Assembly (NCBI GenBank): GCA_000004695.1
Contig: CM000151.3
Span: forward strand, 2,080,001 to 2,144,000
Reading direction: 5' to 3'
DNA from: Dictyostelium discoideum
Lineage: Eukaryota
Length of the DNA stretch: 64,000 nucleotides
Each line of letters opens with the position of its first letter. Position 1 is the stretch's first letter. The position numbers and the translations under genes are program-made. This document shows positions 1 to 63,410 of the stretch, piece by piece. The notes beneath the pieces are model-generated. The model made no database searches. It was not told the DNA's origin and saw only the letters and a program-made list of their open reading frames with translations.

Positions 1-535
1 GCTGCTTCTAAATGACCAATTGAACTTTTAATTGATCCAATTAATAATGGTTGTTGACTTAAGGTGGAATTATTTGAAGAATGTGTTTTAAAAACTCTTG
101 ACATTCCATCCAATTCAACTGGATCACCAGTTGGTGTACCGGTACCATGTGCTTCAATATAAACTATATCTTCAAGTTTCACAGTTCCATTGGTTGATGA
201 AAATGCATTATTAACATTATCAGCTTGTGATATTGATGATGGTGAATAAAAGTTTTGTTTATCTTTTAAACCGTTACCATCAACATTTGAACTTGCACCT
301 TTAATAACACAATAAATGTTATTACCATCTGCAACTGATTGTTTTAAACTCTTTAAAACTAATAACGCAACACCTTCTCCTCTAACGAATCCATCTGCAC
401 TTTCATCAAATGTCATACATTTGCCTTGACTTTTACTTAACATATTCAAATATGAAAAAGATTTTGATGAATTTGTTTCTAAAAATCATAAAATAAAATA
501 AAATATGTTAGTATTTAAAAAAGTTTAAAATAGAG

Positions 536-577
<42 letters not shown>

Positions 578-1242
578 ATACCAAATAATGAATTTACACC
601 TCCAACAATTGATAAATTTGAGAAACCACTTTTAATTGATTGATAGCCTAATCTTATTGCATTTAATGATGATGAACATGCAGTATCTATAGTTATTGAT
701 TCACCAGAGAAATCAAAACAATGTGATATACGATTTGCAATGGTACTTAATGCCGATCCAAAAACGTTTGTTTGTGTTGAATTTGGATTTTTGCTAATAT
801 CTTTATAATCAACTGATGTACAACCAATGAAAACTGATGTTTTTGAACCACGAATTTTGATTGGATCAATATTTGAATCTTCTAATGCTTCCCATGTACA
901 TTTTAATAATAATCTTTGTTGTGGATCAATAGTTGATACTTCAGATGGATTAATACCAAAAAATAATGGATCAAATGATTTCCATTCATCAAGTGGTAGT
1001 AAACCTGCATTTCCATTTGAAATTTCACCCAATTCATTAAAATTATCGCTCCATCTTTCAGTGGTTTTAACAACACCATCAAATCCATTCATTAAATTAT
1101 TCCATAATTCTTTTGTTGAATCATTTGATTTACTTAAATCTCCTGATGGTAATCTGAATCCAATTCCAATAATTGCAATATCATCCTCGTTTTCATTTGG
1201 TTTCGCTAGTTTATAAGATGATAAGTTAGTATTGTTTGTCAT
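1..1242 (-). CDS. Type I polyketide synthase, 5' part only (ketosynthase domain). The gene runs off the left edge. Exon 1 is 582..1242 with ATG at 1242; the intron is 481..581 (GTATGT...TTTTTAG); exon 2 is 1..480 (partial).
   Basis: Translation gives [15 protein letters not shown]...[16 protein letters not shown] (KS active-site Cys) ...GGVNSLF | ETNSSKSF...[16 protein letters not shown]...[10 protein letters not shown]...GHLEAA. It is about 90% nt-identical to the 5' end of the complete PKS at 55150..56401. The upstream part of ORF 508..1287 (MFFFLFL...) is poly(T)/intron read-through. Confidence 0.85.
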
Positions 1243-2519: not shown

Positions 2520-3841
2520 ATTAAAAATACTATTTTTATTATTATATGAACTATTATTATATAAATTATTATTATATAAATTATTTAAACAATCTTTAAT
2601 ATCATCAGAAGATTGTAGTTTTAATTCTGAATTAAAGAAATGATTATTTCTAAAGGTATTAATTAATTTATATTTAAGAGGAGATATATTTCCGCTATTG
2701 TTATTGTTATTATTATTACTATTATTATTATTAAATAGCTCTTCATAAAATTCAATTGATCTATTTGGAAGTATATTAAAAAATAAAGTTGGAGAGAATT
2801 GTAATTGTGATTGTTGATAAGGTGTTAATTTTGATTTATCAGTTTTAGTATTAAATAGAGTTGTTAGAGTATCAATTGCATCTGATTTTCTAAATTCTTT
2901 CTCCATTCTCTTTCTATCCATTATATTAAAATGTGGTGTTTCCTTATAAATTGGATGATAAATGGTTGGAAATAAATGTTTATTCGAATAGTCAATTAAT
3001 AATATACCAAATAATAATGGTACTGGTGGTAATGGATTCTTTAAAATATTTGAATAATTTTGAATTTTTAATAATTCTCTTTCAATTTCACAAATATCAA
3101 AATTATTATCATTATTACTATTATTATTATTATTATTATTATTTAGAAATCTAATTGGAAAATTCTTAAAAACTTCTGATGAAATAACTGATTTAATTGG
3201 AAAACTAAAATTAAAATCATTACATTTACCACCAAAATAATTTATGTGCCAAATTAAACCATAAAGATAATGATTTAATAAAATGTCTTTTTTACTATAA
3301 GCTGCTGCTGTAGTTGTTGTTGTTGTTATTGTTTCCTTTTCATTCATTTTAACATCTCCATCTTCATTTTCAATTTCATTTTCAATTTCATTCTCATTTT
3401 CAATTTCATTCTCATTTTCAATTTCATTTTCTTCAAAATCTTCATCTTCGTCTTGATTATCATCTTCATCTTCATCATTCTCATTACAACCATCATCCTC
3501 TTCTTCACTATTATCATCAGCATCATTATCATTACAACCATTTTTAACAGAAGTGAATAAATTGTATAATTTATAAATATATTTCTCTTTAATAATATTT
3601 ATATTTGATTCCCAAAATGGATGATTTATAGATAAAAATGATCTAATTAAATAATCTATATCATTTGATGAATCTACTATTTTATTTTCAATGATGATAT
3701 TATATCTTGTTTTTATTTTACTATTACTACCATTTCCCTTATCTTTTTCACATTTAAAATTTTGAGTTGGTTGACTTATTCCTTTTGATAAACAATAATA
3801 ATTACCTGCGTTATTAAATAATGATTTTAATATTTGAGGTG

Positions 3842-28353: not shown

Positions 28354-28886
28354 AACATCAACAATACCATTAGGATCACAAAAGCGTATAAATATTACAT
28401 CATTTTCAGGTCACAGAATTACTAGAGTAGTAAAATCTCAAAATAGTGAGAATATTTCAACCTCTTTATCAAAATCAAATATATTATTTAACGATTTATT
28501 AAAGAAACCAATTAATGAAATTTTAGAAGAGATAGAGAATATTGTAAAATATTTTTATTAATATATTTATATTTATATATTATAGTAATAATAATAATTA
28601 TAATAATTATAATACTAATATTTTATTTCTCAGGAATCATTAAAATTAAAATCAGAATTAATTAAAAATTCAAATTCATTAACGCCAACCAAATCAAAAG
28701 GAGTTAGTGAAGAGATAGTAAAGAATAAAGACAATAGATTATGGGTAGATAAATATGCACCAACATCATTTCATGATTTACTTAGTGATACAACTATGAA
28801 TTTAGAAGTACTAAATTGGTTAGAATTATGGGATCATATTGTATTTGATAAACCGTTATCAAAAAATTTAATAATGCCTTCAACTT

Positions 28887-28959
<73 letters not shown>

Positions 28960-29430
28960 TAGTAGTAGTACAGGTGGTGGATATTTTAATAAATTTAATA
29001 GTAAATTTACAACAAGTAGTAATAGTAATCAACAACATCAAAACCAAGGTCAATATTTATTACAAGAGGATGGAACACCAATTGCAAAGATTATACTTTT
29101 AACAGGTGGACCAGGTTTAGGTAAAACCACATTAGCACATGTACTCGCTAAACAAGCCAATTATAATCCAGTGGAAATCAATGCAAGTGAAGATAGATCA
29201 GGTGAAGCATTTGAAAGTAAATTATTATCAGCAATTGAAATGAAATCATTATTCAATGATAATAAACCAAATTGTTTAATTATTGATGAAATTGATGGTA
29301 TTTCAGGTCGTGATAATGGTCCAATTGAATTATTAATTAAATTAATTGATAATAGTTTAAAATTAGGTAATCATAAAAAGTCAACTACAAACCCAGCCGC
29401 TAAAAAATCAGCTGGAAAAGATACAGAATC

Positions 29431-29470
<40 letters not shown>

Positions 29471-31066
29471 CATGAAGACCAAGATGAAGATGATGAAAAA
29501 TCAACAAAAACCAAAGGTAAAAAAGGTAAAAAGAAAGGATTTACAACAAGATTACTTAGACCAATCATTTGTATTTGTAATGATCAATATGTACCATCAT
29601 TAAGAAAACTTAGACAAAAAGCAATGGTATTTGATTTTCAAGCACCAAAGAAAAATGATTTATTATCAAGATTAAAGGTAATTTGTTCAAACGAAGGATT
29701 ATCAGCAACTGATGCAACTTTGAATGCATTAATCGATATGACAGGTAGTGATATTCGTGCGTGTATCAACTCTTTACAATTTATTAAATCAAAAACTACT
29801 GTATTAAATTCAGAATTATTAAAGAATAAATCAAATATTGTAATTGGTCAAAAAGATATGGAAAAAGGTTTAGTTGAAATTTGGAATAATATTTTTAAAA
29901 GTTCAAGTATTACAAGTTCAACTAATAAATTATCAAAATATTCAAATACTATATCATCATCGTCATCATCAATTGATTCTATTAATAGTATTAGTAATGA
30001 TTATTTAAATCAATTAGATTTTCAAATTGGTGCATGTAATCAAGTTGATAAATTAATTGATGGTGTTTATGAAAATTATTTAACAAATATGTCAAGTGAT
30101 TATACAATGCAGAAAACAATGGATTGTTTGGATTGGATGGTATTTGGTGATCAAATGTTAAATGTTCATGCTGATGAAAAGTATCGTTCTCTAGTTCCAT
30201 TGGCAATTCATCAACGTTGTTCAACTTATTCACCAAAGATACAATTACCTCATTCCGATTATGATAATTTCATTAAAAAGAAATCAAACTCAAATATTAA
30301 AGATTCCTTTTACTCAGATTTACCAGCCACAATCTATTCTTATCTTACAAAGAAATGCTTTGTCATTGATTTCATTTACCCATTTGTTGATATACTTTCC
30401 TTACCAGTACGTGTTACAAATGTTCAATTGTATAGCCAAACAGAGAAAACCAATTTAAATCGTTTGGTTGAAATTATGAAATTCTATAGATTATCTTATA
30501 AGTTGGAAAAAGTAAATAATTTTATCAAACAACAACATCAACCACAAAAAAAATTAGTTGATAGTCTGGATGAAAAAGATGATGAAGAATTACAACGTAA
30601 TAAAAAACAACAAAATCAACAAACTCAAGATATAACAATGCAATATAAATTGGAACCACCTATTGATACTTTATTATATTTTCAAAATCAAAATCCAAAA
30701 ACTATGGTAAAACATATTCGATTATCTCATAGTCAAAAACAAATTATTTCTACAGCTGTACAACAATATAAACCACCTCAAAAATCAACTACTACCACCG
30801 CCACCGACACCACCACTACTGTTAAAAATGATGAAAATCAAAAACAAAAAGATCAATTGAAAAAACCAATACCAACAAAAGAAGAATTCAAAAAACCTTT
30901 GGTACCAACAGTTTTAAAAGATTTCTTTGGTAGAGTCATTCAAACATCACCAGAAACTAAAAAGAAAACTATGGAAGCAACAGCTGGTCCAAATATTAAA
31001 TATAGATTCCAAGAAGGTTTTACAAATGCTGTTAAGAAAACAGTGTATGTAAAAGATTTCTTGTAA
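28163..31066 (+). CDS. ctf18: Chromosome transmission fidelity protein 18 (CTF18), an RFC-like AAA+ ATPase of the alternative clamp loader. Exons 28163..28543 and 28634..31066; intron 28544..28633.
   Basis: ...DNRLWVDKYAPTSFHDLLSDTTMNLEVLNWLELWDHIVF (Ctf18 signature) ...IILLTGGPGLGKTTLAHVLAKQANYNPVEINASEDRS (Walker A) ...CLIIDEIDGI (Walker B). GTAAAA donor after ...EEIENI and TTTCTCAG acceptor, in frame with ORF 28796..31066. Confidence 0.85.
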
Positions 31067-31170: not shown

Positions 31171-33956
31171 TTATTTATCAAATGAATAATTTGGATGTAT
31201 AATTAATATTCTATGATCAGGATATTGATTTGGTACTAATACAACAAGAGAATTGTCTTTGTTTATCATTTTATTGATAACCATTTTAGTGATTTTAGTT
31301 TCTTTTGTAACTTCATCATCAGTGATTATGCCAGACTCCAATTGATCTTTAATGTACCAATCGATAAGATCAATTTGTTTTATACCAGATTTCTCTTTTC
31401 CTGATTGTTTAATTTGTAAAACTAATAATTTTGATAATTGTGAATATTTTGAAAAATTCATAGTTAATTTGCCAATACCATCATCACCATCTTCTTCAGC
31501 ATGGTTATCGTTATCATTTTCAACATTTTTGACTAAATCATCATCATCATCACCTAAAATTACATCATTTGTTTCAACATGAACTATTGATTTCTCTAAT
31601 AATCTTGCAGCTTCATTTACATATTTTGGTAAAACTTTTGTATCTAAATGTAAACGAGCCAATGATTCCGATAAACGAACTAATGATTCCAATTGTCTAA
31701 CTGTGATTCTGTATGCTGGAGTTTTTGAACCACTGGTATCCATTTGACGTAATCTATCGTAATGTCCCACCAATAGTTGTACACTTTCATCTGGAATGGT
31801 TGGACAAATGAATTTTGTATACTTTATATAGTTTTTAATTTCAGTTGCAGAGAATGGTGCGTTGAATGCTTTTTCACGTTTTTGATGAGTCAACACGATA
31901 TGCTCTGCTATTCTATGATCAGATTCTGGATTACATTCATCCAATACCACAAAGAATAAATCGAAACGTGACATTAGTGGACCACCAATATTTAAATTTT
32001 GTTTTAAAGTTTTATTACGATCATAACGACCACCAATTGGATTTGCTGCTGCTAAAATACTAGTACGAGCATTCAATGATGCATGAATACCCGCCTTTGC
32101 AATGGAAATGGTTTGTTGTTCCATTGCTTCATGAATTGCAACTTGGTCACCTGGCTCCATTTTATCAAATTCATCAATACAACAAATACCATTATCTGCC
32201 AACATCAATGCACCTGCTTCAATATTAAAATCACCACTTTCTTGATCCTTTACAACTGTTGCCGTTAAACCTGCTGCACTACTTGCTTTACCAGATGTAT
32301 AAACTGTACGTGGTAAAAATGATACTAAATACTTTAAAAATGTACTCTTTGATGTTGATGGATCACCAACAATACAAACATTAATATCACCTCTTAATCT
32401 AATCTTTTCTGGTGTTTTCTTATGTACACCACCAAATAACATTAATAATACTCCTCTTTTAACTAAAATAAATAAATTAATAAATTAATAATTTTTTAAA
32501 TAAATATCTATATAAATTATTATTATAAATTATTATTATTATACTTTACTTTCTTCATGACCAAAAATTGAAGGACAAATTGAATTTACTAAATTTTGAT
32601 AAATTTTTTTACTTTTAATCATTTTCTTTAAACTATCTTTTTCTTTTTTTGGTAAAGAATCTAAAAAGGATTCTTTTGATTCAGGTTCTAAATCTTCATC
32701 AATGATACCAACTGAATGAGAATGACCACCATGATTATCACCAGATTCTTTACGATTGATTGAGGAAAGTGTTGAAACATTTGAACGAACACTTTGAGAG
32801 AAGAAACAAACTCTATAATTCATTTCTCTAACACCTAAATCTTTTAAACCACCAACACCACCAAAATCATCCTTACCATTTGCATTTGAACCTTCCTTTG
32901 TGCTCGATGCTACACCCTTGATAATTTGAGCATTATTACCAATGGACATTTTAGAAACATCTGGAATTACATTCATCGTACCAACAAATGTACATGTATC
33001 ACCAGCTCTAGCGGTTTCAACCGAATCACCACGTAGAATGATCTCTAATGATCTTGGTACGCTACCACCTGGAATTTCGGAATTGTTTTCTTGAACTCTA
33101 ACTTTTTGCCAATCAGTGAATGTCGACTCCTCTAAATTTATCTTCCAACGACGTTGATTTGAACATAACGGATTCAAACATTTGGTTGGTTCTGTATATT
33201 TAAATTGTTGGGCTATTGGTAACGATGAGGTATTACAATCCTTACAAATGAATGACCCAATAACCAACTCTGGTCTAACCTCTGACGTTCTCGTTACTGT
33301 ACCCGATATAGAACATAATGATCCTATCCTACTTGATCTAAGTTCTCTAATATGTACAAACGTTGAAACATTATAACAACAAATTGATAATACTATCCTT
33401 TCTTTATTAACTCTCTCCATAAATGATGGAAAATATTTTTGTATAAAAATTGATAATCCTTGTCTTATCGCTGGTTCTAATCTAATATTTATATAATTTT
33501 ATAATTAATTTAAATTCAACCAATTTTTTTTTTTTTTTTTTTTTTTCCTTTTTTTTTTTTTTTTTTTAAATCATACCTAAAATATTCCATTAATAATGCT
33601 TTTCCTAAACCTTTATCAAATTTCTCTAAATGTAAGAAATCTATATATAAACTTGATTTATCATTTTTTATCATTCTTTCAACTTGTTGACGATAATAAC
33701 TTTTATCTATTTTCTCTTTTTTAATACCATTTTCGTCATATTCATTTTCATTTTCATTATTATCTTCATTATCTTCATTATTATTATTATTATTATTTTT
33801 ATCAATTTTTTTTTTTAATTTAAAATTATTTAAAAATTCTAAAAATTTATTTTTTGTCCATTCTTTTGCTTCATCTTGTACCTTTTGAAATTGATGTGTT
33901 TGATTTGGTCTTATTGTTGCTTTATCTTCATCAACTCCAGCATCTGTATATATCAT
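31171..33956 (-). CDS. mcm6: DNA replication licensing factor MCM6. Exons 33577..33956, 32550..33481 and 31171..32462; introns 33482..33576 and 32463..32549.
   Basis: The N-terminus is ...FQKVQDEAKEWTKNKFLEFL...LLMEYF. It continues RLEPAIRQGLSIF..., the zinc finger CKDC...CLNPLC, ...IFGHEE | IKRGVLLMLFGGVHKK, Walker A GDPSTSKS, IDEFDKM, and an arginine finger SRFDLFF. The C-terminus VLPKYVNEAARLLEKSIVHVE...HPNYSFDK matches MCM6-specific tails. Donors GTATGA and GTAAAG, phases consistent. Confidence 0.9.
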
Positions 33957-46876: not shown

Positions 46877-49800
46877 TTACTTTTTTTGTTTTAAATGATT
46901 AATAATCATTTGATTTATAATTTCTAAATTATTTTCTTGAATGGTGTCAGTATTACTATTACTATATTTTGTAATTATATTATGAAGTTGTAAATATTTA
47001 TAAACACAAGAAGAATTATTTGAATCTGTTAAAATTTGAATCCAATCATTAAATTCAATCTGTTTACAATTAAATTCACATTTTAATATTTGATTAATCT
47101 GTTGTGAATTTATATTATTATTATTACTATTATTATTATTTAAATTAATTGTATTAAATAATAATTTTCCTTTTTCATTATCATGCTCATAATAATTTTG
47201 ATTATTTATTTGATTTATAATTAAATTTGATAAATGATTAATTGGAATGGTTGGATATGATGTAGAAACGTTTGGATAAAATCCAATTGAATGACAAGAT
47301 TGTAAAAATAATTGTAATAATTCATTTTCATTTCCTAAACCAGTTTCAATATTTGAAAAAATTGGAGGAATTCTTATCATTGTTGATGGTATATTAAATT
47401 TTATTGAACAATCTTTTAGAAAATGTTCAATTAATAAACTACTTTGAATTTTTCCACTTGATAATGGTAATTTTTCAATTGATTCAAAATTTGGAATTTC
47501 AATACTATTATATTCATTTTCATTAATAAATTCATTTGATATTCCTAAATAAATATATATTGATGATATATTTATAATTGAAATTTTATTATTATTATTA
47601 TTATTATTATTATCATTATTATTACAATAACCATTAATTATTAAAGATTTAATTAATTCTTTAACCAAATTTAATTCAGTTTCATTAAATTCTTGTTCAA
47701 ATAAAATTGAATCTTGAAATGAATCACTTGAAACAATAATTATTAAATTTATATCATTATTTTTGATGAATAATTGATTATAGTCTTTTTCTGATGAAAC
47801 TGATATAATATTAATTTTTGAAATTTCATTTTGATTTAAATTAAAATATAATTGATGGTACTTTAGGCTTTGAATTATTAAATCAATTGATGTATTTAAA
47901 CAATAAACTATAGAACAATTTGAATCTTTAACTAAATTAAATAATAAATAAGTACTTAAATAACCACCACTTGAAAAAGGGAATAATATTCTTTTATTAT
48001 TTTTACTAGTACCACCATTTTTAGTAATATTTACATACGATGATGTTGATGATGAAAATTCATTACCAATAACTTTTAATTTAATTTGTTTTTTCCAAAA
48101 TTTTAAATTTTTAACATTATTATTTTTACTTTTACCCCCAATGAATGAACCAGTTTTAATATTTTCATTATTATTTGATTGTTGATTACTATCTTTTATT
48201 TTTTTATTATCAATAGCTGTAATGATAATTTTAATTACTAAAGAGATTGTATTATTTTGAATTTGTTGAATTGTAATAATATTTGGAGAGATTTCTTTAT
48301 CTATCCAATTTTTTAATTGAACAGTTAATAATGAGTCTGCACCATAATCAAGTAATCGTAAATCTTGATTAATTTTAGATGATTCAATTGAAAGGAATTC
48401 TGATATTTTATTAATGAAAATATCTTTAATATTTAATGAATCTACAACTTTTCCACCACCACCACTGCCACTACTACTATTGGAACCACCACCACCACCA
48501 TCGATTGAATTAATAATAAAATCAAATTTTTGTTTAGGAATTTGAGCATTTACTTTAAAAGCTGGAAAATTGAAATTACAAATTAAAAGATTTGTTGATA
48601 AATGTTGATTTTGAATTTGTAAATCTAATGAACCTAAAATTAAATTTGTAGAGATTGGATTTAAACCTTGACCAACTAACATTTCACCAACTGATTCAAA
48701 TCTTGATACAAATCCTGCATCACCTAAAGAACCATAATTTGTACAAATTGATGGTAACCCAATTGATTTTCTAAATCTTGATAATGAATCTAAAACATTA
48801 TTCGCACAAACATAAGAACATTGTTTTGAAGAACCGATGATTGAAGCAATTGAAGATGCCATTACAAATTGTTTTAATTTCCAATTCCTCTTTATCGATT
48901 GATTATGTAAATTAATTGCACCAAATGTTTTTGCACCATGTGAAATATCCAAACTTTCCATATCAATTTTATTAACTTTTCTAGAAACTTGTTGAAATGC
49001 AAAATGAAAAATTGAATCAACATTATTTATCAATGGATTATCTTTTAATATTTGATCGATTGATTCATTTACTAAACTTTCATTACAAATATCAATACTC
49101 TTAAAATGAAATCTAATATTTGAATTATTGTTTACTAATAATTCTAATTCCCATTTCATTGGTGATTTTGAAAATATTATAATATCTTTAACACAATCTG
49201 AAAATTTAACAATCCATTTTAATATCTCTAAAACTATCCCCGTTTGACCTGTAACTAATATTGTTGAACCTAAATTATCATTATTTATTTTATAATTTGA
49301 TTTTAAAATTGGTTCCTTAACATCAATACTACCACTACCACTACTACTACCACTACTACTACTACTATTGAAATTATTATTTTCAATTAATTTATTTATT
49401 AAATTAATATTATTATTTACAATAATTTTACCAATATGTTTACGTTCATTTATAAATTCAATTGCTTCTTTTATTTTTAAATTTGAATATTCATTAATTG
49501 GTATTAAATTTAATTGATTATTTTCAATTGCATTTGATATTTGTAAAAATAAAATTTGAAGTTTTCTTTTATTTATAAATAATAATTCAACATTATGATA
49601 ACCATAATTATATTTGAATTTACTAAAATCTATATATTCATTTGGATTTAAATGAGTGATTGATAAATCAACGATTCTACCACCACATTCCAAACATTTG
49701 AAATTTGAATCTAAATAATCACTTGATAATGTATTCAATATTAAATCAACACCTTTTTTATTTGATCCCAATTGTTTTAATTTTAATTTAATTTGTTTTA

Positions 49801-51037
49801 CATAATCTTTATTTCTTGTTGAATAAATTCCAGTGATAAAATCACCATAGGTGTCAATAAGATATTGCTCTTTCTCTTTTGAACCTACTGTAACGAATAG
49901 ATGTGATTTATGACCTTTCCATTTCAATATATTCAATGCAGATAAACCAACACCACCAGTACCTGAATGAATTAAAATTGATTCATTATCTTGGATATTG
50001 AAATTACCAATATTGAATATTGAATATAAAGATGTTAAATACACTGCTGGTATTGATGCTGCCTCTGAGTGGCTTAAATTGGTTGGTTTCTTTACAATGT
50101 AATCTTTATCAATGATAATATGAGAAGATGACGAATCGAACGCAATTCCATAAACTTCATCACCCACTTTAAATTGATCTTCACCACAATCTTTTCCAAC
50201 CCTTGTAATGATACCAGAGAAATCAATACCAATCTCTGGATTGTTAATATCACCTTTACGATTACAAATCTCTGGCGGAACCAATCCACAATATACTAAA
50301 TAATCTTTATAATTCACTCCTAAACTTAATACATTCACTTCAACCTTATTCGATTTAATAATTTCTTTTCTCGATTTTAATTTATATTCTAAATTTGATG
50401 TTAATTTTAAATAAACATTTGAAAAAGAATCATTACTAACACCAATACCATATTCAAATGAATTTGATTTAAATGTATTGATTAAATTTTTAATTGATTC
50501 TTTTTTATATCTTTCATAATAAATTTCATTATTCATTATTATAAATTCCTTTTGAGTATTAATAGTCTCATCAATTAAAGAATCAATTTTTGAAATTAAA
50601 TTTAAATTTTCAATTGATTGTTGATCAAAATCTATATAGAAAAGTTGTAATTGTTCTGAAAACTCTTCAAAATACTTTGCAGCTCCAATAACTGATGCTG
50701 ATAAATAATTTTTACCATTATTTACATTGGTTGTAATTAAAACATGTTTACATTTTAAATTATTTGATGATAATAATCTCTTATTAATTTCAATAAATTC
50801 AAATGTTACCAATTTAAAATTTTCAAAGTTTAATTGTTCAATAGGTTTAATAAAATAAATTATTGATTTATTTGTAATAATATTTGATTCTTCTAATTCT
50901 ATAAATTCTTTAATACTTGAAATTTTAATAATAATTTTAAATGAATAAATTGATTCTAACATTTTAATAAAATGATTATTATTATTCTTATTATCTTTAT
51001 CAATTTCATTACAAAATATAATAACATTATCTTCATA

Positions 51038-51118
<81 letters not shown>

Positions 51119-54100
51119 ATTAATTTCTAGAATTGATGGTTTTTTACAATGAATTAAAAAAGAAACTGATTCTAATTCTTTTGACATTATTATATATTTA
51201 AAATTATGATTTGTTAATAAATCGAACCAAGATTGTTGATTCATACAACAACTATCTTTTCTGATATCAGTATCTTGAAATGACCACCACTGATTGAAAA
51301 CACCAAATACATTATCTAGAATTATTGAATTAAATGGTGGTTCTATAAATAATAATTGACCATTTGGTACAAGAACTTTATAAATTTGATCAATTGAAAA
51401 TCTAATATCTTTAACCACATGTAATACATTTGACATTATTACATAATCATAATATGAATATTTCAAATTTTGTTTTTCAATTAATGGTTCTTCTAAATCT
51501 AATGAACGATAAATTATTTTTATACCAAATTTACCACCATCTAAATCTAAATCATTATTATTCTCATTATTATTATTATTATTATTATTGTTTATAATTT
51601 TTGATAATTTTAATTTTGCATCTGGTATGAATGACGTTGAAATATCACTCCATGTATATTCAATATCAATTTGATTAAAAACATTATTACTCTCTTCAAG
51701 TAATTGAGTAATTTTATTTAATACAACCATTGATAATGAAGAAACACCACCACCAAATTCTAAAATTCTTATTGTGATTTTCTCTTTTTTCAATACCAAT
51801 GGTTTAATAGATTCTTTAATAATTTCAGCAAGTAATTGATGATTTTTTGCAACAAATTCAGTATCTGAATAAAATTTATCAAGTAAACCATCTTCAAATA
51901 AAATTTGTGGACTATCTAAATTTGAATCATTTTCATTTTCAAATGGAAATAATTGTTTTGAAATTACTCTAGTTGATCTCTTTAAAATTTTATAATTATT
52001 ATTATTTTCCATTTGTTTTTTTAATTCTTTAAAATTATTATTATTATTATTTTTATAACCAAACATTTTTATAGTTTTAAAAACTGATTTAAATAATCTT
52101 TCATATTGAATTGAATTTTCTAAATTTTTATTAATAAAAATTGATTTAAAATTTAAAAATAATTGATCAATTGATTGATTTTCAATTTCTTTAATTGTTA
52201 TATTTGAATTTCTTTTATTAATATTTAAAAACAATGAAGATGATATAAAATTTTGATAAATTGAAATATTTGAACTATAGATATCTTTTGATTTAAATTG
52301 ATCAGATTCATAAAGTGATTTAAATGATGAAGGTGCACCAATTGGTGAATCTCTTGGTTGTAAATATCTTGAATATACTAAATCAATTGGATATTCAATT
52401 TCTAAGGGATTTTTAACTATTTTTAATGATTTACAAATTACTCTTTCAATTTCAATTAAAATCGTACCATCTTTTAACATTATAATAATTGATGCTAAAT
52501 ATGAATTTCCTAATCTTGATTTAAATTTTGAATAAACGAAAATACTATTATTACTACTATTAATATCATTTGTTTCATATACTTGTAAATTTGATGAATA
52601 ATATTTTAATCCTTCAATTTTATGAAAAACTAGTTGACAATTTTCTTGAATTAATGCAATCATTCCATGTAAACAACTATCTAATAATTGTGTTTTAAAA
52701 AATGATTTTGATGTTGATGAATTAACAGTAACTTCTGATAAAGAACAACTATCACCTAAAAAACACTGAATAACACCTTGAAATTCATCATTATAAGTTA
52801 AACCTGTTTTTGATTTTATATGTTGATATAAATCAATTCTTGATATTTTTGTTTTATTACACTTTTTTGAAATTATTTCTTGTAAATTTAATTTTTTATT
52901 ATTATTATTATTATTACTATTATTATTATTACTATTATTATTATTTAATAATTGAAAATTAGCAATACATGATTGTACCCATTCATTTGATTTATTATCT
53001 TTAAAGTGATAATAAAGTTTAAATTCAGTTTTACCAGTTTGGAAAACATTTGTTTGTAAACATTGATTAATACCATCTATTAAAATTAATGGTGATTTAA
53101 ATTCCATTGAACTAATAGTCAAATCTTGTGATGGATATAATTTCAATAGATTATCAATGTAACCACAACCTGGGAAATAGTATTTACCATTTACAATATG
53201 ACCTTTAAGATATTTGAATGGTTCTTTCTTTATATCAATAAATGTTTGATATGATTTAACATTTGATGAATTATCATAGTTTGATAAACCAAGTATATCA
53301 ATTGGTGGTCCCTCAATTCTATGTTTTTGTTGAATCAAATCTTCTTTCCAATACTTTTCATCATCCCATTGATAATTTGGTAATGGTTGTGGTTGTGGTT
53401 GTTGTAGTGGTGGTATTACTGTGTGGTTGTGGTTATTAATACTACCACAATCAAATTGTGATTTAAAATTAATATTATATCTATTTTCACAATAAAGTTT
53501 AGCAATTGTTTTTTGAATCTCCATAGTATCATTCTTTTTCTTATGAAGTGGTGAATAAATTGATATTTTCCCACTAAAATAATTTGTTGATACAGGTATC
53601 ATTTGTTTTAAATAAAATTGTAATGTTGGATGTGGTGCTAATTCAATGAATACAATATCAGTTCCCAATTTATTTATTTCAATATGTTTATATAAATTTG
53701 ATATAGTTTGTGAAAATTTAACTGGTTCTACTATATTATTATAAATATATTCAGAGTTAAATGGTGTTGTTGTTGTTTCTACATTATTATTATTATTATT
53801 ACTATTATTATTGCTATCATTAAAATTATTATAATATAAATTTGTTGTAACAGTTGAGAAAATTGGTATTTTTGGTAATTCATAATCAATATTTAATTTT
53901 GAAATATCATCTTTTACTATTTTTTGATTTGAAGTATGGAAAGATGATAATGAAGCTAACATTTTTGAGAAAATTCCTTTATCTTTTAATTCATTTGATA
54001 TTTGATTTAATTGTTGTTCTTTACCTCCTAATACAATTGAATTTGGTGAATTGTAACATGCAATTTCAATATCTGGGTATTTAGTTGAATAATTTGATGA

Positions 54101-54898
54101 TAAATAATCTTCAGAGCTAATATTAACTGATAACATTCTACCACCATTACAATGTGTTTGAATTTGTGCTAATGATCTATGATAAATTAAATAACATAAA
54201 GTATCCAATGTAATCATACCTGAGCAATAAGCTGCTGGAATCTCACCTAAACTATGACCAACTATAAATGATGCTTCAATACCCCAATGTTTATAAAATT
54301 CAAATAATGATATAGCTAACATACACATTATTGGTTGTGCGATTGTTGGATGTTGAATACTAATATCATCATCATGATCAGTAATTGATATGAATTTTTC
54401 AAAAACTGAATAACCATAATATTTAAATAATTTATTATCAAACATATTGATTGATTGTTTGAAAATTGGTTCACTATTATATAATTCCATTGCCATTCTA
54501 CTATATTGTGAACCTTGACCTGCAAATACAAATACAACTATAGGATTCTTACTATGAACCATTGACATTGTTGATGACTTTGAATTTAATGTTTGAACTC
54601 TATTTAATTGTTCTTTCTCTTCTCCTTCTCTTTCTTTTTCTTTTTCTTTTTCTTTTTGTGATTGTTTTTGTTTATTAAATTCATCCCAATTTGAAACCGA
54701 AAAAATTACTAAACGTTGATAAAGTGATAAAGATTTATTAAAAATTTGATTTTTAACAAATTCATTAAAATTTATTTTTAATTGAAATTCTTCACTTTCA
54801 ATAATTGATTGATATTTCTTTAATGATAAAGTTGAATTTGCTGAAAAAGGTATTAAATACTTTTTTGGTTGACTATTATCATATTGCTGCTGTCCTCG

Positions 54899-54960
<62 letters not shown>

Positions 54961-56353
54961 GATTTTCATTATTTTTAAATTGTGATAAAATTAAACAACA
55001 ATTTGAACCAGTAATACCAAAACTATTGATTAACATTGTTATTTGTTTATTTGTATTAAATTGAATTGGTTCAGTTACAACTTTTAAATTCCATTCATTA
55101 AATTTAATCATTGGATTTGGTTTATTAAAATTAATATTTGGAACAAAGTAACCATTTTTAAACATTAAACAACATTTAATTAATGATGCAACACCCGATG
55201 CTGCCTCTAAATGACCAATTGAGCTTTTAATTGACCCAATTAATAATGGTTGTTGAGTTGTATTATTATTACTACCACTACAACTACCACTACCAATAGC
55301 AATATCATTTAATTGTTTAAATGAATTTGAAATTGCTTCTAATTCAATTGGATCGCCAGTTGGTGTACCAGTACCATGTGCTTCAATATAATCGATATTA
55401 TTGAATTTAATTTTACCATTGGTTGATTGAATTGCCATTTTAATATTTTCACACTGTGATATTGATGAAGGTGAAAAAAAGTTTTGTTTATCTTTTAAAC
55501 CACCACCATCAACATTTGAACTTGCACCATTGATAATACAATAAATGGTATTACCATCTGATAATGCTTGTTTTAAACTTTTTAAAACCACAATTCCAAC
55601 ACCTTCTCCTCTGACATATCCATCAGCACTTTCATCAAATGTCATACACCTTGCTGTACCATTAGTTGATTTACTTAACATATTTAAATGGGTGAATGAT
55701 TTTGAAACGTTTGTATCCAACAATAAATTTACACCACCGACAATTGATAAATTACAATTGTTCTGCTTACTGAATTTAATTGATTGGTAACCCATTTTAA
55801 TAGCATTCAATGATGATGAACATGCTGTATCAATTGTAATTGATTCATTACGAAAATCAAAACAATATGATATACGATTTGAAATTGAATGATTTGTCAA
55901 CCCGAATATATTAGATTTGTTATTATTCATTTGATTTTGTTGTTGATTTTGATAATCATTAGTTGAACAACCAATGAAAACTGATGTATTTGAACCACGA
56001 ATTTTCATTGGATCAATTCTTGCATCTTCTAATGCTTCCCATGTACATTTTAATAATAGTCTTTGTTGTGGATCAATGCTTGGTGCTTCTGATGGATTAA
56101 TACCAAAAAATAATGGATCAAATGATTTCCATTCATCAAGTGGTAATAAACCAGCATTTCCATTTGAAATTTCACCCAATTCATTGAAATTATCACTCCA
56201 TCTTTCTCTACTTTCAATAATACCATCAAATCCATTCATTAAATTATCCCATAATTCAATTGGTGAATCATTTGATTTAGAAATATCTCCCGATGGTAAT
56301 CTAAATCCAATACCAACAATTGCAATTTCATCATTATCATCAATAATATTATT

Positions 56354-56400
<47 letters not shown>

Positions 56401-56401
56401 T
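46877..56401 (-). CDS. Type I iterative highly reducing polyketide synthase, 3174 aa, apparently intronless. Domain order is KS-AT-DH-CMeT-ER-KR-ACP, followed by a C-terminal domain of about 550 aa with no recognisable thioesterase or reductase motifs.
   Basis: KS reads [16 protein letters not shown]...[10 protein letters not shown]...GHLEAASG. AT reads VFVFAGQGSQY...GHSLGEIPAAY. DH reads LKGHIVNGKYYFPGCGY (HxxxGxxxxP). CMeT reads IRILEFGGGVSSLS...LLFIEPP. ER reads LIHSGTGGVGLSALNILKW. KR reads ILVTGQTGIVLEILKW...YVCANN. ACP reads LLDYGADSLLTVQL. There are N-terminal poly-N and internal poly-Q/N tracts. Confidence 0.9.
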
Positions 56402-57293
56402 ATTTTTGTTATTATTATTATTAAATTTATAAATGAGAATATTAGTAAATTAATAATTTTATATGTTTTAAAAAAAAAAAAAATTTTAATAATAAAATAA
56501 AATTAAATTAAATATATATTAATAGTTAATTAATTAATCTTACTTTTAAACCTTTTTAGAAATTTATCGTTTTTCAAATAAAATTTATTTACTAAAAAAA
56601 CTTCATTTTATCTCTTTATATCTGTTGCAGAATATACAAACTCAAATGAATGAAGAAAAAAAAAAAAAATTGAAAAAAAAAATTGTAAAAAAAAAAAAAA
56701 AAAGAATATTAACAAAAACACCAAATCGACACAAAAAAAAAAAAAAAAAAAAATCTCATTTTTATATCATTTTATGTATGTTTGGGTGCTCTTTTTTTCT
56801 TAAAATAAATAAAATTAAATAATTAATAAAAAAAAAATGAATAATAAAATGAAAAAAAAATAAAATAATGGTGCAGATCTAATCTTTTTAAACCACAAAA
56901 TATAGATTTTTTTTTGAAAATTATTTAATTATCTATTGTAAAAAAATTACACTTTAAAATTTCATTTTTTCATTCAAAAAAAAATAACAAGTAAAATGTT
57001 AATTATTAAATAATTAATTATTAATTACCTTAAAAATCACACCGGTTTTTTCACATGCAAAAAAAAAGAAAATGCTAAAAGTAATTTTTTTTTTTTAAAA
57101 TAATAACAAACTCCCAACTTCCGACACTTTTAAAACCCAAAAACATTGGGGAGTTAAAAAAAGAAAAATGATTTGATCTCTTGGAAGTTTTCAAATTTAT
57201 TTTTAAAAGGAAAAAAAAAAAAATAAAAAAAGATTCAGACTTTTTTATACTTCCATTTACGATTGGGTGAACTTAATCCTGGTCCCAATGTTG

Positions 57294-57820: not shown

Positions 57821-60800
57821 ATGGCAACTACCAATGTAGTTGCAAGTTTATTGAACAATGGTGTTCATGGTGCAGGTAAATATTTAAATATTGGGCATTA
57901 AAAAATAAAAAATAAAAAATAAAAAATAAATTTCAAGATCGGAATCTAATTATTGTTTTTTTTTATTAATTTTATTCCAAATAATTTCAAAAACAAATGA
58001 ATTATTAATGATTTTATTATAATAATAATTTTCAAAAAGATGGTCCAAATGGTCTTCATGGTGGTAGTGGAGGATATGGTGGTGGACGTGGTGGTGATGT
58101 AAGTTTTTTTTTTTTTCTCCAAACCATTAATAAAAGATTTTAAAATTATAAATATGTATACTAAATTATATTTTTATTTTTTTTATTTTTTTTTTTTTTT
58201 AAAAAAAAATAAAGGGATCTAGAGGTGCAGATGGTAATCATGGTACACCATCAGGTAGTATTGAAGTTTTTTTGGCAACAGATGGAATTAAAAATATTTT
58301 AGTAGATTATACATTAGGACCAACACCAATTCATCATGAAATTAGAAAAGGAGTTGAACCATTGGAATTAGGTAATCCTCAAACACATCTCTATTTATCA
58401 TCTAGAGGAGGAGATGGTGGTTGCGGTGGTCGTGGTGGTGATGGTGGTAGTGGTGGTCCTGGTAGCGCAGGTATGAATGCCACAAGACATAGTTCAGGTA
58501 CAAATGGTGGACCTGGTGGTAATGGTGGTAGTGGTGGTAATGGTGGTAGTGGTGGATCGTCAGGTAATGGTAATGATATTACAATTAGGAATAATCAAGA
58601 AGATATGGATTTGTTAATGATTTTAAAACAAGGAGTTAGTGATACAGGTCCAGGTATACCTGGAAAGGGTGGTGATAAAGGTCATGGTGGTAGAGGTGGA
58701 CCAGGAGGACCAGGTGGTAACTCTTATAGTTGGAGTGAAAGTTATCAAGTTTCAGATGGTAGAGGTGGTACAACAACTCAATATAGACATCATACAAATC
58801 CAGGTGGTATTAGTAAGTTTAAATTTAAATTCTAACATTAAAAAAGGAAAAAAAAAAAAAAAAAAAAATACTAACGAAAAAAAAAAAAAAAAAAAATAGG
58901 TGGTCCAAGTGGACATAGTGGTAGTAATGGTATTGGTAAGTTTAAATTTAAATTTTATTATTGAAAAAAAAGGAAAAAAAAAAAAAAAAAAATTACTAAT
59001 TTTAAAAAAAAAAAAAAAAAAATACTAGATGGTAATAATGGTATTTCAGGTATACCAGGAAAATATTCAATTTTATTAAATACTCATGAATATGGAGTTG
59101 TTAGATATGAAGCACCATATGATTTACATGTTGAAAAGATAAGATATATAGATACGATTGGATATAATATAATTGAACCAGATTCAGATGTTAGATTAAG
59201 TGTTGATCATTTAAATGTTGGTGGTATGCCAACACCATCACATCAAAATATTATGGCATATGTTGGTGATAATGGTTGGGTTGAATGTCCAATAGAGAAT
59301 AGGGTTGCAATGCAAAGATGGATAGTAGAGAAAACCAAATCAAGTTTACCAAAGGAAATTATATTTCATATTAAAGATTATCGTCATGATATTAGAGTGT
59401 TACCAAGAAATCCATTTATTCAAAGTTCTACAATGGATCATCAATGTTTAGTGGATCGTATCAATCAAAGCTTTGCAAGAGTATCAGCTACCAAATCACC
59501 ATTTACCATTGAATATCCAGTTCAGTCATCGATTATCAAAGGTTTAGACTGTGTCACAATGACAGATGAGGCACCATTTACCTATAGTATTTGGAATAAA
59601 TCATTACTATCGATTGGTGTTGAGTCGAATGAGTTTGATAAAAAATCACCAAATCGTGTTTTATTTACAACTCTTAAAATTAATTTAAATACACGTGGTG
59701 GTAATACATCAATTAACGCAACCGATATTATAGTGAGAGATGTTAATGGTAAAATATTCAATAATCCAGAGAATGGATTATATTCAACCATTGAATTAAT
59801 TAATCCACAACAATTGAAATTTGCATCGGCCACAATGACATTTGTAAATCCTGATATTAAACCATACACTCGTGTTTTGGTTGAGTCTTCACTTTATTTA
59901 GGTCATATTAAAGACATGATCAATTCACCACAACCAATCCAATCTAGACCATTTGAAATTCAATTATCAGAGGGTTACTTATCATCATTATTCAATTGTG
60001 ACATTTTATTAGTGGTTAACAACCAATCGGAATACGATGAAATCACTCAATGGAAGTTATTAGCCCATCAATTAGGTTTAACATTAAATGTTTGGAATTC
60101 TGGTTTATATCAAGGTTTTATGTTAAATCATAGAAAAGCAGATGGTCGTACACTTCTTCAAGATTTTAGATCAAAAACAATCATTTATCTAGATAATAAC
60201 TATGTAAAGGATGAATTGTTATATCCAGCCTCTGAGTATATTAGATCAAAAGAATTTTTAAATGCTGCCTATCATCATGGTATTCATGTTTTAATGGTTG
60301 GTAAAAATTTCTCAATCGAGAATGAAATCTTCCCAATTAATACATTTGAAAGAGCAACTTTGGTTTATTATAAACAACATAAACAATTATTATACGCTTT
60401 AAAACATAGAATTCCTTCTGGCACTGGTTGTGGTCAAATTATACCACCACATATGGCTGTTGATGATAATGGTGATCTATCATTAAATCTATTAGTTGAT
60501 AAAAAGAATGAATATTTCATTGTAATCTTTAGACAATTAACCCTACTTTCAATCTTTAAAAAATCAAATTCACTCTACCCAATTAAAACAATTCATTTAG
60601 ATAGTTTTAATTTAACTTGTTTAACTCAACCACATTCTGAAACTAATGAAATCATTACAATTAATTTAGAATTTCAACATTTAGGTTTTAAAATTAATTT
60701 TTCACCATCAAAAGATAAAAAACTTAAAGAAAATTCAATTTCAAAAATTCAACAATTTTTTGAAATTTTACAACAAATTAAAACTTTATCACCAATTAAT

Positions 60801-63410
60801 AATAATAATAATAATAATAATATAAATATAAATGAAAATAATAATAATAATAATTTAAATGGTTTAAATGTTTCAGGTGGTGGTGAAAGAAAAAGTGTTG
60901 GTCCAATTTCAACAATAATTGAAGATGATAATGATATTTATGGTGGTTATTTGTATGTTAAATTTAAAGCAGAAGGATCATATAAAAAATATTATTTCAA
61001 TTTATTAACAAATGCAAAGGTATTACATCAACGTGAAGAAAAGAGTAAAAAAAAATCTAACAACAACAATGTTGCAATTAAAATATTAAATTTAAAGAGA
61101 TTTTCATTGACAAGAGGTAATCAATTTGGTACAGAGAAACAACATCATTTACAAACTTTCCAATTGGTTACACCAGAGACAACTTGGTACTTTAGAACTA
61201 GTTCAAATGATGAATATCAAGAATGGTTAAGTAGATTATCACCAATGTCAATTGAATATAATCTAACCTATTCTGAGCCATCGTCGGTGGTTAAGGACCA
61301 AATCATTTTAAAGAAAGAGGATGCAAGAGGTATACATTTATCACCAAGAACTCCAATTTTAGAAGAGAAGCATATACCAATCATTCAAGTTGTTGATAGA
61401 TTTGTCATTGGAAAACCAAAGGAAAAAGATTTAATAAAGTATGCAGAGAAATTATCGGAAAAGTTAAATTCACGTTTCCCAAATCAAAGAAATATTGTTG
61501 TCTATGAATTTAAACCAAAACAAACTGACGGCTGGAAGAGAATGACACTTGGTAATGTTGAAGTACATAGATCACTAGATAAAATTCAACCACATTTTGC
61601 AAAACTTAATATTGAACAAGATGTTTATATTCATAGTCCAACAATGATTCAAACACCTTCAACCATTTATCATTTCTTTAAAGTTTTAGATTTTAGAGAG
61701 AAATTATCCCTATTGGATAGTTTAGCAGAAAATTTATATTCAAATGATGAAACTTTGAATTTACTCTCAAATATTTCATCTCAATCTAAATTAGGTTTAT
61801 TACTCTTATCAATTTGTTCAGATCTTGCTGAAGAACAACATTGGTTTAGAGATGGTTCAAATTGGAGAGATAAATTATCAATTGATAAAATTAAATTAAA
61901 TTTATTAAAATTAAATATTTTAAAGAATTTCCAATTCAATTCTTATAATAATAGTAATTCAACAAATGTTACAACTAGATTATCTTTACCAATTTCAGAT
62001 CTTTTAATTGAAATTGGTGCTCACTTAAAGATAATTCTTTCAAATTTCCCTAAAAACTTTGCTGATAAAATTTGTTTACGTCGTAGAGCTAATGATGTTA
62101 CTGATGCTTCAAATTCGCTTTGGAATGATATTGTCATGATTCATCTATTTGGTAAAGAATTAAAAGATGATAAACCTATTGGTAAATCTAATCCAAATGA
62201 ATCTCAACTTTTAAAATCAATTAAAGAAACTGAATTGAAAAAACAAAAAGAATGGCAAAATCATTTATTCACTCAACATGGTTCAACTGGTAGTTGGGGT
62301 TACAATTGTACAAAAGCTGATCCTTCAAAAAATAAAAAAGAGAAACGTTGGATTAAAGGCGCCCATGTTATTTTAGCTTATAGAAAACCACCCTTCACTT
62401 CTGTAACAAGTGTTATCGATTGTGAAATCCTTTTACCAACCATTATGTCAAAGCAATCATTCCTTTCAAACTATGTTCCTCCAGTTCAAGGTAGTGCAAT
62501 CGTTGAAGAAAGAACTATTTTCGGTAATAATCAAGAGGCTCGTCAACAATTTATAAATCGTATTGCAACTGAGAAACTAGGTTTCGATATTAATAATACT
62601 GATAGATCATCACATTTAACAGTTTTAGAAAATTATTCAACAATATTTAATAATAATAATCAATCATTAATTCCAGTTGTTCAATTAGAAAAACCAACTG
62701 ATTCAATGACTCAAATTTTACCAAATTCTTATTCTTCAACCGAACCTCTTTCCTCAACCCCTTCTGATAATATTATTAGTATAGATTTAACAAAGAATTT
62801 CCAATCACCTCCAACTACAACTGAAAAACAATTTATTATTGGTGATGATTCAAATGATAATAATAATCTAATTAATAATTCTTTTGAACCTTCAATGGTA
62901 ATTCCATTATCACATTCAAATAATCAACAACAACAACAACAACAACAAGGAGTTAGTGAACCATCTTCGCCTGTGATCATTGACGGAGCTTCAAAACATC
63001 AATATCAAAATGCTGAAAATAATATTATTAACAACGACACCACTACCACTACCACCATTACAGAAACGACTACATCAACAGTTAAAATTGAGAAATTAGA
63101 GAAAAAAGAAGATTTATCAAACACTTCATCATCATCAACACCATCATCATCAACACCATCATCATCAACAATTTCTTCACCATTATTACAACCAATCATT
63201 ACAGTAAACGAGCAAAATATTGAAATTTCTTTAACAACAGCAACTACAATAACACCAGTAATTGAAGAACCATCACCTTTAACAACACCTTCATCTTTAT
63301 CATTATCAATCTCTTCACCATTTTTACCTGAAGAAAATAATAATAATAATAACATCAGTAATAATACAACAAAAGAAGATGATTTAGTAATTGAAGAACA
63401 CCACAATTAA
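57821..63410 (+). CDS. Large protein of about 1700 aa with Gly-rich GGxGG repeats at the N-terminus, a central PH domain and a Ser/Thr-rich C-terminus. Five exons: 57821..57875, 58040..58098, 58215..58812, 58900..58935 and 59029..63410.
   Basis: MATTNVVASLLNNGVHGA | DGPNGLHGGSGGYGGGRGGD | GSRGADGNHGTPSGSIEVFLATDGIKN...GGDGGCGGRGGDGGSGGPGS...GNGGSGGNGGSGG...NPGGI | SGPSGHSGSNGI | GDGNNGISGIPGKYSILLNTHEYGVVRYEAPYDL..., then ORF 59226..63410. All donors are GTAAAT or GTAAGT, and acceptors are AAAAAG, ATAAAG, AAATAG and ATACTAG with consistent phases. The PH-like segment reads GGYLYVKFKAEGSYKKYYFNLLTNAKVLHQ...QTFQLVTPETTWYFRTSSNDEYQEWLSRL. Confidence 0.7.

Follow-up and report, generated by a model that had tools for sequence, protein, structure and literature searches.

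Dictyostelium discoideum has 40 polyketide synthase (PKS) genes, and products are known for a handful of them. In LovB, an iterative highly reducing (HR) PKS with a truncated condensation (CON) domain, the product is released by a separate thioesterase (TE), LovG. Among the 40 D. discoideum PKSs (DdPKSs), 21 have an offloading domain after the acyl carrier protein (ACP), in 19 of them a probable thioester reductase (TR) domain, and the remaining 19 have no offloading domain (PMC12828403). The reductase-like (R*) domain of the fungal synthetase CpaS lacks the Ser-Tyr-Lys triad, with Tyr replaced by Leu, and performs a Dieckmann cyclisation without NAD(P)H (PMC3202784; PMC4979870), and it keeps a GxxG/SxxG motif (PMC3202784). 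Here we analyse a DdPKS gene in a 64-kb window, by which we mean the whole stretch of DNA studied. Read from its sequence, the tail of the encoded protein (the 433 residues after the ACP, or 411 counted from KNLKFWKK) is a TR domain that has lost its NAD(P)H-binding and catalytic residues and yet is kept by selection. At a probability of roughly 65%, we favor the reading that the tail is a redox-dead TR (TR0) with a selected non-redox role and that the chain is not released reductively. The DNA record itself we take to be D. discoideum chromosome 2.

By its sequence, the tail is a diverged TR/R domain (PF07993/TIGR01746) of extended short-chain dehydrogenase/reductase (SDR) fold, laid out as a low-complexity linker followed by a degenerate TR-like domain that starts at the FWKKQIKL helix (~aa 2768). 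It matches PF07993 (NAD_binding_4) at E=0.007 with 16 bits, below the gathering score of 20.1, and TIGR01746 (thioester reductase domain) at E=6e-7 with 29 bits against a cut-off of 213, the latter match being limited to profile positions 163-318, the C-terminal half; in the PDB it finds the MxaA terminal reductase at E=0.03. Word-indexed protein searches, run with the raw tail and with Asn/Gln/Gly runs removed, returned a single match, a D. citrinum fragment (P0001), the raw query probably having been swamped by low-complexity words. Searched exhaustively with phmmer, a set of 1.84 billion representative sequences yielded 14 relatives, the best at E=4.6e-24, with 32-35% identity. Nine of the ten whose source was checked are from dictyostelids, and the hosts comprise D. 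firmibasis, D. cf. discoideum, D. dimigraforme, D. purpureum, P. violaceum, A. subglobosum, and D. discoideum. This comparison covers relatives up to ~36% identity, the closest D. discoideum paralogues (> ~50% identity) lying outside the protein sets searched. All eight relatives scanned with Pfam carry PF07993 (E 1e-18 to 1e-48) exactly at the position matched by the tail, mostly right after ACP_SdgA_C.

A TR profile built from nine dictyostelid TR domains, with the tail left out, scores the tail at 173.5 bits, which places its homology to TR beyond doubt; because family members score 281-474 bits against the same kind of profile when each is left out in turn, the tail is at the same time the most divergent member of the family. 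The family profile with the tail included matches the R domain of MxaA (4u7w) at E=4.5e-52 and also matches the TR of an S. coelicolor PKS, archaeal and mycobacterial R domains of nonribosomal peptide synthetases (NRPSs), CAR, AusA, PhqB, and psoA. In agreement with this assignment, an AlphaFold2 model of the tail (predicted template-modelling score, pTM, 0.72; mean predicted local distance difference test, pLDDT, 64) finds its best Foldseek matches among terminal R domains (4w4t, 8v1x, 6vtj, 8aep, and 6nki; E ~1e-11 to 1e-12). Because the alignment used for this model consisted of TR homologues, the fold match is supportive and not independent of the sequence homology.

These results change the picture drawn in an earlier note on this DNA, which had described a C-terminal domain of ~550 aa, unassigned and the most novel part of the protein. 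The post-ACP region is shorter, and its domain class is neither unassigned nor new, given that TR has already been reported in 19 of the 40 DdPKSs (PMC12828403). The earlier note had itself named a known TE or R domain as the outcome that would speak against it, and as the profile searches and the AlphaFold2/Foldseek comparison place the tail in the R family, its novelty as a fold and as a family is refuted. The motif statements of that note were accurate, for neither GxSxG nor GxxGxxG turned up in the motif scan of the tail, and Pfam gave no sign of a type III PKS fusion. A TE identity is ruled out by the absence of GxSxG in the scan and of any Pfam thioesterase or abhydrolase match, and a type III PKS fusion by the absence of a Pfam match to Chal_sti_synt, the fold being that of an SDR.

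Aligned with nine canonical dictyostelid TR homologues, the tail departs from the family at the sites of cofactor binding and catalysis, and a motif scan detects neither GxxGxxG nor YxxxK anywhere in it. In the Gly-rich loop, the consensus (L/I)TGxTG(F/Y)LG has become SSGGYLS, with Gly replaced by Ser2810, Thr by Gly2812, and Gly by Ser2816, and with one residue inserted upstream. The family's conserved Arg downstream of YCL (YCLxR), which in R/SDR domains binds the 2'-phosphate of NADPH, is deleted together with ~7 residues; the GDLxKxxLGL(S) motif is reduced to VS with a deletion of eight residues; and NSAA is replaced by VSSD. Ser2946 is the sole retained member of the Ser/Thr-Tyr-Lys triad. 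At the catalytic GYxQSK, which reads GKIQSS in the tail, Lys2984 stands in place of Tyr and Ser2988 in place of Lys; both Tyr and Lys are present in all nine homologues and in MxaA, and alignments with MxaA show the same correspondence. A shift in the alignment as the source of the Tyr-to-Lys change is ruled out by identical G, IQS, and E residues that anchor the stretch.

The losses are concentrated in these sites. Overall, the tail keeps 24 of the 43 columns that are conserved in at least eight of the nine homologues, and it keeps 2 of 11 cofactor or catalytic columns versus 22 of 32 other columns (Fisher p=0.005), the assignment of columns to cofactor binding following general knowledge of SDR and R domains. 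The best-kept block, tail residues 263-330 (IPSTMIRIPPIFSNIETGLG...LLQLFLQSC..IGFYP), retains 69% of the consensus and follows the catalytic helix; in family terms it corresponds to IPxxxIRxPxIF..TG.G..LLQL..YP and is kept along with the core of the fold. Also still in place are a single loop Gly, the Ser of the triad, and the Arg of IRxP. Because the Gly-rich loop and the Tyr-Lys pair are both missing, we suggest that the tail be called TR-like or TR0 and not a thioester reductase, and, given the loss of the NAD(P)H-binding and catalytic residues, it probably acts as a reductase no longer. In the literature searched, we found no description of such a degenerate TR state.

The loss of these residues has not been followed by decay of the reading frame. 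With the neighboring helicase gene as synteny anchor, orthologous loci were reached in two assemblies labelled D. discoideum, L002 (GCA_054859385.1) and L004 (GCA_054859355.1), and in both the PKS ORF is intact (3124 and 3145 aa, respectively). The degenerate motifs FPFSSGGYLS and SGKIQSS are identical in the two orthologues, and since these lineages stand at a dS of ~0.11, the redox residues were lost before the lineages separated, and the sequence has been maintained from then on. Identity to L002 is 95.5% in the tail, compared with 95.2% in KS, 93.7% in AT, and 96.5% in ER, and the indels among the orthologues fall within or next to low-complexity runs rich in Asn, Ser, or Asp/Asn, with a single-residue deletion as the one exception. 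By the Nei-Gojobori method, the ratio of non-synonymous to synonymous rates (dN/dS) is 0.23-0.24 for the tail core, 0.22-0.24 for the whole gene, and 0.08-0.37 for individual domains, at a dS of ~0.11; in the tail, 14-16 synonymous and 15-16 non-synonymous differences were counted, and its dN/dS lies below 1 (binomial test, p=2e-4). On these sequence comparisons the tail is, like the whole gene, under purifying selection.

Sequence identities to more distant relatives indicate that evolution has been faster in the TR domain than in the remainder of the protein, KR and ACP included. KR and ACP are 54-61% identical to those of P0001 and P0006, and judged by the identity of these two proteins to each other, the PKS is at least equally close in KR and about equally close in ACP. 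In TR, the PKS is only 29-34% identical to P0001 and P0006, compared with 43% between P0001 and P0006. A poly-Asn tract in the C-terminal subdomain of the tail (~47100-47140, aa ~3090-3100) reads NNNNSNNNN in the window and comprises ~45 consecutive Asn in L004, from which it follows that large in-frame variation in length is tolerated inside a folded domain.

Altogether, these observations lead us to propose that the redox machinery was lost in this lineage, namely the Gly-rich loop, the Arg after beta-2, the GDL loop, NSAA, and the catalytic Tyr and Lys, while the domain itself would have been retained for another purpose. On this indirect evidence, we infer that the PKS would no longer offload its chain as an aldehyde or alcohol, and that the polyketide most likely leaves non-reductively as an acid, an ester, or another acyl-transfer product. 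The release route is most likely the non-reductive one used by the 19 DdPKSs without an offloading domain, the fatty-acid-synthase-like Pks16 among them, since these enzymes too must release their chains non-reductively. TR0 could dock or constrain the ACP-bound acyl-phosphopantetheine, or could itself aid thioester cleavage or cyclisation, and of its conceivable roles a structural or ACP-docking one is the most likely. Several points weigh against this proposal. Atypical SDRs at times bind their cofactor through degenerate loops, the loss of reductase activity is read from sequence alone, and the model of the tail is of only moderate confidence (mean pLDDT 64). Moreover, because the orthologues are close (dS ~0.11) and the counts small, the estimate of selection is coarse and speaks to recent history only, and the picture of how old and widespread the degenerate state may be draws on a comparison to which the closest D. 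discoideum paralogues do not contribute.

The main rival to a redox-dead TR0 with a structural or docking role, although in our judgment an unlikely one, is that the tail has itself become a cofactor-free release catalyst in the manner of R* domains, in which case it could carry out a Claisen- or Dieckmann-type cyclisation, or a hydrolysis or acyl transfer via Ser2946 and Lys2984, the latter at the Tyr position. CpaS provides a precedent as a Tyr-less R domain that releases its product by Dieckmann chemistry without NAD(P)H (PMC3202784; PMC4979870), and the strength of purifying selection on the tail, equal to that on the catalytic domains, the position of its most conserved block (tail 263-330, 69% of consensus) directly after the catalytic helix and beside the active-site motifs, and the retention of Ser2946 would all fit such a role. 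However, a Pfam scan of the whole PKS found no condensation, adenylation, or PCP match, the tail following the ACP of the PKS itself, and without an NRPS module there would be no beta-ketoacyl-aminoacyl substrate of the kind used by known R* domains; a fully reducing PKS would also leave little beta-keto function for a Dieckmann or Claisen closure. In addition, the tail offers no new catalytic candidates in comparison with its reductive homologues, its His residues being common to P0001 or P0002, and its whole cofactor site is eroded, whereas known R* domains keep GxxG/SxxG (PMC3202784). It is tempting to speculate about a Ser2946-Lys2984 dyad that would form a cofactor-independent thioesterase or acyltransferase, evolved from TR and acting on the ACP-bound acyl chain. 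We consider such a dyad improbable, but, if true, it would account for the purifying selection acting on the tail and provide a first handle on product release by dictyostelid PKSs that lack a TE.

Two further readings fare worse. The tail might be a functionless relic in decay, or the whole gene might be turning into a pseudogene, its frame open only because the inactivation is recent, and it is true that the tail is the most divergent in its family (173 vs 281-474 bits), that it evolved faster than KR and ACP of the same protein, and that its Rossmann half has accumulated deletions and poly-Asn insertions. This is nevertheless a very doubtful reading: the 433-codon frame is open in three lineages, for each of which the chance is ~1e-20 in DNA of ~22% GC; the dN/dS of the tail (0.23) is no higher than that of the catalytic domains; the degenerate motifs are identical across lineages at a dS of ~0.11; and all other catalytic motifs are intact. 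Purifying selection, together with a fold and family that are those of TR and the retained loop Gly, triad Ser, and IRxP Arg, would also suit a thioester reductase that still works, by way of an unusual cofactor site, and releases an aldehyde or alcohol as its paralogues do. This last reading is the least probable of all, for the catalytic Tyr and Lys, invariant in the nine homologues and MxaA, are both replaced, the loop has lost two of its three glycines, the Arg after YCL and the GD dipeptide are gone along with an eight-residue loop, and general TR/SDR profiles match the C-terminal half only.

The remainder of the protein has the features of a competent synthase (see the table). Pfam finds KS-AT-DH-CMeT-ER-KR-ACP in this order on one polypeptide, as the earlier note had it, DH being recognised by its motifs and by sub-threshold matches, and the check proposed there for CMeT and ER is answered by Pfam matches to both. 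The catalytic motifs of KS, AT, DH, ER, and ACP are all found and are kept in the orthologues L002 and L004. They include the Cys of DTACSS and the His residues of HGTGT and GHLE in KS; the HxxxGxxxxP motif (HIVNGKYYFP) and the DxxxH motif (DSCLH) of DH, both present despite the sub-threshold Pfam scores; and Ser2690 in GADSL, the site of phosphopantetheine attachment in ACP. Motif I of the methyltransferase-type domain reads ILEFGGGVSS, that is, GGGVS instead of GxGxG, and it is for this reason that we infer C-methylation as a plausible activity and do not treat the label C-methylating as established. From its domains and motifs, we classify the protein as an iterative HR type I PKS of the dictyostelid DdPKS family with an apparently competent core.

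Table. Features of the window, with coordinates, strand, and the evidence by which each was recognised.
Feature	Residues (aa)	Window position	Strand	Basis
PKS, complete, single exon	3174 aa + stop	46877..56401	-	ORF; L001 gene call
KS	24-511	54869..56332	-	Pfam PF00109 E=5.5e-65, with PF02801 and PF16197
AT, motifs GHSLG and SSFH	623-934	53600..54535	-	Pfam PF00698 E=1.6e-37
DH	1056-1326	52424..53236	-	PF21089 18.5 bits and PF14765 19.2 bits, both below gathering score
C-methyltransferase-type domain	1537-1736	51194..51793	-	PF08242 38.6 bits; PF13489 32 bits
ER, motif HSGTGGVG	2017-2328	49418..50353	-	PF08240; PF13602
KR catalytic subdomain	2380-2559	48725..49264	-	PF08659 E=7.2e-24
ACP	2654-2741	48179..48442	-	PF23297 E=5e-33; PF00550
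Post-ACP tail, 433 aa	2742-3174	46880..48178	-	phmmer; TR profile; TIGR01746; PF07993; Foldseek
Remnant of NAD(P)H Gly-rich loop, LFPFSSGGYLS	2806-2816	47954..47986	-	Alignment with nine homologues
VYCLNTS	2832-2838	47888..47908	-	Alignment
NIISVSSEK	2864-2872	47786..47812	-	Alignment
NISSI	2944-2948	47558..47572	-	Invariant Ser column of alignment
SSGKIQSSLL, catalytic GYxQSK position	2981-2990	47432..47461	-	Alignment
Helicase DDB_G0294407 (Q86L44), dsRBD + DEAD/Helicase_C	837 aa	43898..46411	-	Identical protein
Paralogous pks 5' end, KS domain		1..1194	-	blastn; tblastn; Pfam KS match
RFC1-like AAA ATPase, replication		28796-31066	+
MCM6, multi-exon, replication		31171-33420	-
XRN-like ORF	990 aa	1848-4820	-	Weak XRN_M match

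That the gene consists of a single uninterrupted ORF of 3174 codons and a stop, as the earlier note had stated, is borne out by the ORF list and its translation and by an independent NCBI gene call at locus L001 of GCA_054883475.1, the product of which is an identical protein of 3174 aa encoded with one synonymous nucleotide difference. At the local base composition (~22% G+C), a run of 3174 codons free of stops would arise by chance with a probability of ~1e-145; the two remaining frames of this strand have 249 and 598 stops. An artefactual ORF is ruled out, as three lineages and the independent gene call agree. The adjoining helicase gene is identical to DDB_G0294407 of D. discoideum AX4, and this neighbor together with the identical gene call identifies the PKS gene as a real, annotated D. 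discoideum pks gene. It may correspond to pks15, whose product would likewise have 3174 aa. The exact protein of 3174 aa was not found in a collection of 15 billion sequences, though the gene is called in GCA_054883475.1. An ORF of 152 aa (55974-56432, plus strand) runs antisense to the start of the PKS and its poly-Asn tract and is probably no gene but arises from reading the AAT repeat on the opposite strand.

The helicase gene lies on the same strand, with its start 466 nt downstream of the stop of the PKS. In the two assemblies labelled D. discoideum, the orthologues of the helicase show only ~92% identity to it (measured for P0017; P0028 belongs to the same 90% cluster), which together with the dS of ~0.11 in the PKS suggests that those assemblies represent cryptic sister lineages and not ordinary strains. 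In D. discoideum, the PKS sits between a PH-domain gene (window 59226-63410) and the helicase, while the syntenic interval of D. purpureum (L003; GL871022.1, 6376-12580) runs from the PH-domain gene through Img2 to the helicase and lacks a PKS. The difference points to lineage-specific gain or loss of the PKS at the locus, and the PKS-free interval fits the lineage-specific PKS expansions that have been reported in dictyostelids (PMC3188802).

At the other end of the window lies the 5' end of a paralogous pks gene, with exon 1 at ~583-1194, an intron at ~486-582, and exon 2 from 485 past the edge of the window. Its nucleotide identity to the PKS, given as 90% in the earlier note, is 82.4% over 615 nt and 74.6% over 528 nt by blastn, and the corresponding amino-acid identities by tblastn are 73% and 66%. 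The intron (GT..AG, ~97 nt, poly-T-rich) interrupts KS at homologous aa 227/228, where the PKS has no intron. The idea of a pks cluster raised in that note did not hold up, since the 45 kb between the two genes is occupied by housekeeping genes: an XRN-like gene, a TRAF zinc-finger gene, a pyridine-nucleotide oxidoreductase, an RFC1-like AAA ATPase, MCM6, an LSM gene, and the helicase. No TE, hydrolase, or tailoring gene was recognised in the 64-kb window by Pfam among ORFs of at least 100-200 aa, several of which have no match at all, and a biosynthetic gene cluster is ruled out because the identifiable neighbors are housekeeping genes. Within the XRN-like ORF, whose 990-aa product has no called protein on record, an Ile-rich stretch (…VLIKIIIITIIIIVYHQSFINIIFIIIIIIIS…) resembles an unspliced in-frame intron, the gene being multi-exon.

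Taken together, the tail is a degenerate variant of a known domain, which refines the annotation of a known gene family without adding a new system, and its practical importance is modest. Nonetheless, a domain without its redox machinery that is yet as tightly conserved as KS or AT implies that aldehyde or alcohol products should not be assumed by default for 'TR-containing' DdPKSs, and it makes this PKS a natural test case for non-reductive roles of the R fold, be they structural, ACP-docking, or R*-like release.

Set beside dictyostelid, bacterial, and fungal terminal TR/R domains (MxaA 4u7w/4w4t, S. coelicolor 8v1x, CAR, AusA, and PhqB), the tail occupies the same place right after the ACP, belongs to the same extended-SDR fold and family, in which it finds its best structural matches, and shares the FWxxExxL N-terminal helix, YCL, the triad Ser, and the IPxxxIRxPxIF..TG.G block. 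It differs from them in having no TGxTGxLG, no Arg after YCL, no GDLxKxxLGL, no NSAA, and neither catalytic Tyr nor Lys, scores far below all other members, and presumably is no reductase. With the R* domains of fungal PKS-NRPSs such as CpaS and equisetin synthetase, the tail has in common a C-terminal R fold without the catalytic Tyr; known R* domains act without redox chemistry, and in CpaS the reference residues for catalysis are an Asp and a His. R* domains, however, are placed behind an NRPS module and convert beta-ketoacyl-aminoacyl thioesters into tetramates by cyclisation, whereas the PKS studied here is fully reducing and lacks a C-A-T module, and the relationship seen between the two is one of general membership in the R family. 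Like LovB, the PKS is HR and iterative and would carry a non-catalytic remnant of offloading type after its ACP, so that release would fall to something else; the remnants differ in fold, an NRPS C domain in LovB and an SDR here, and no trans-acting thioesterase was recognised near the PKS among the ORFs scanned in the 64-kb window. Finally, we note that the Steely PKSs (StlA/Pks1 and StlB/Pks37), which belong to the same organism and PKS family, likewise carry an extra domain after the ACP, but theirs is a type III PKS (chalcone synthase) domain, to which the tail has no match.

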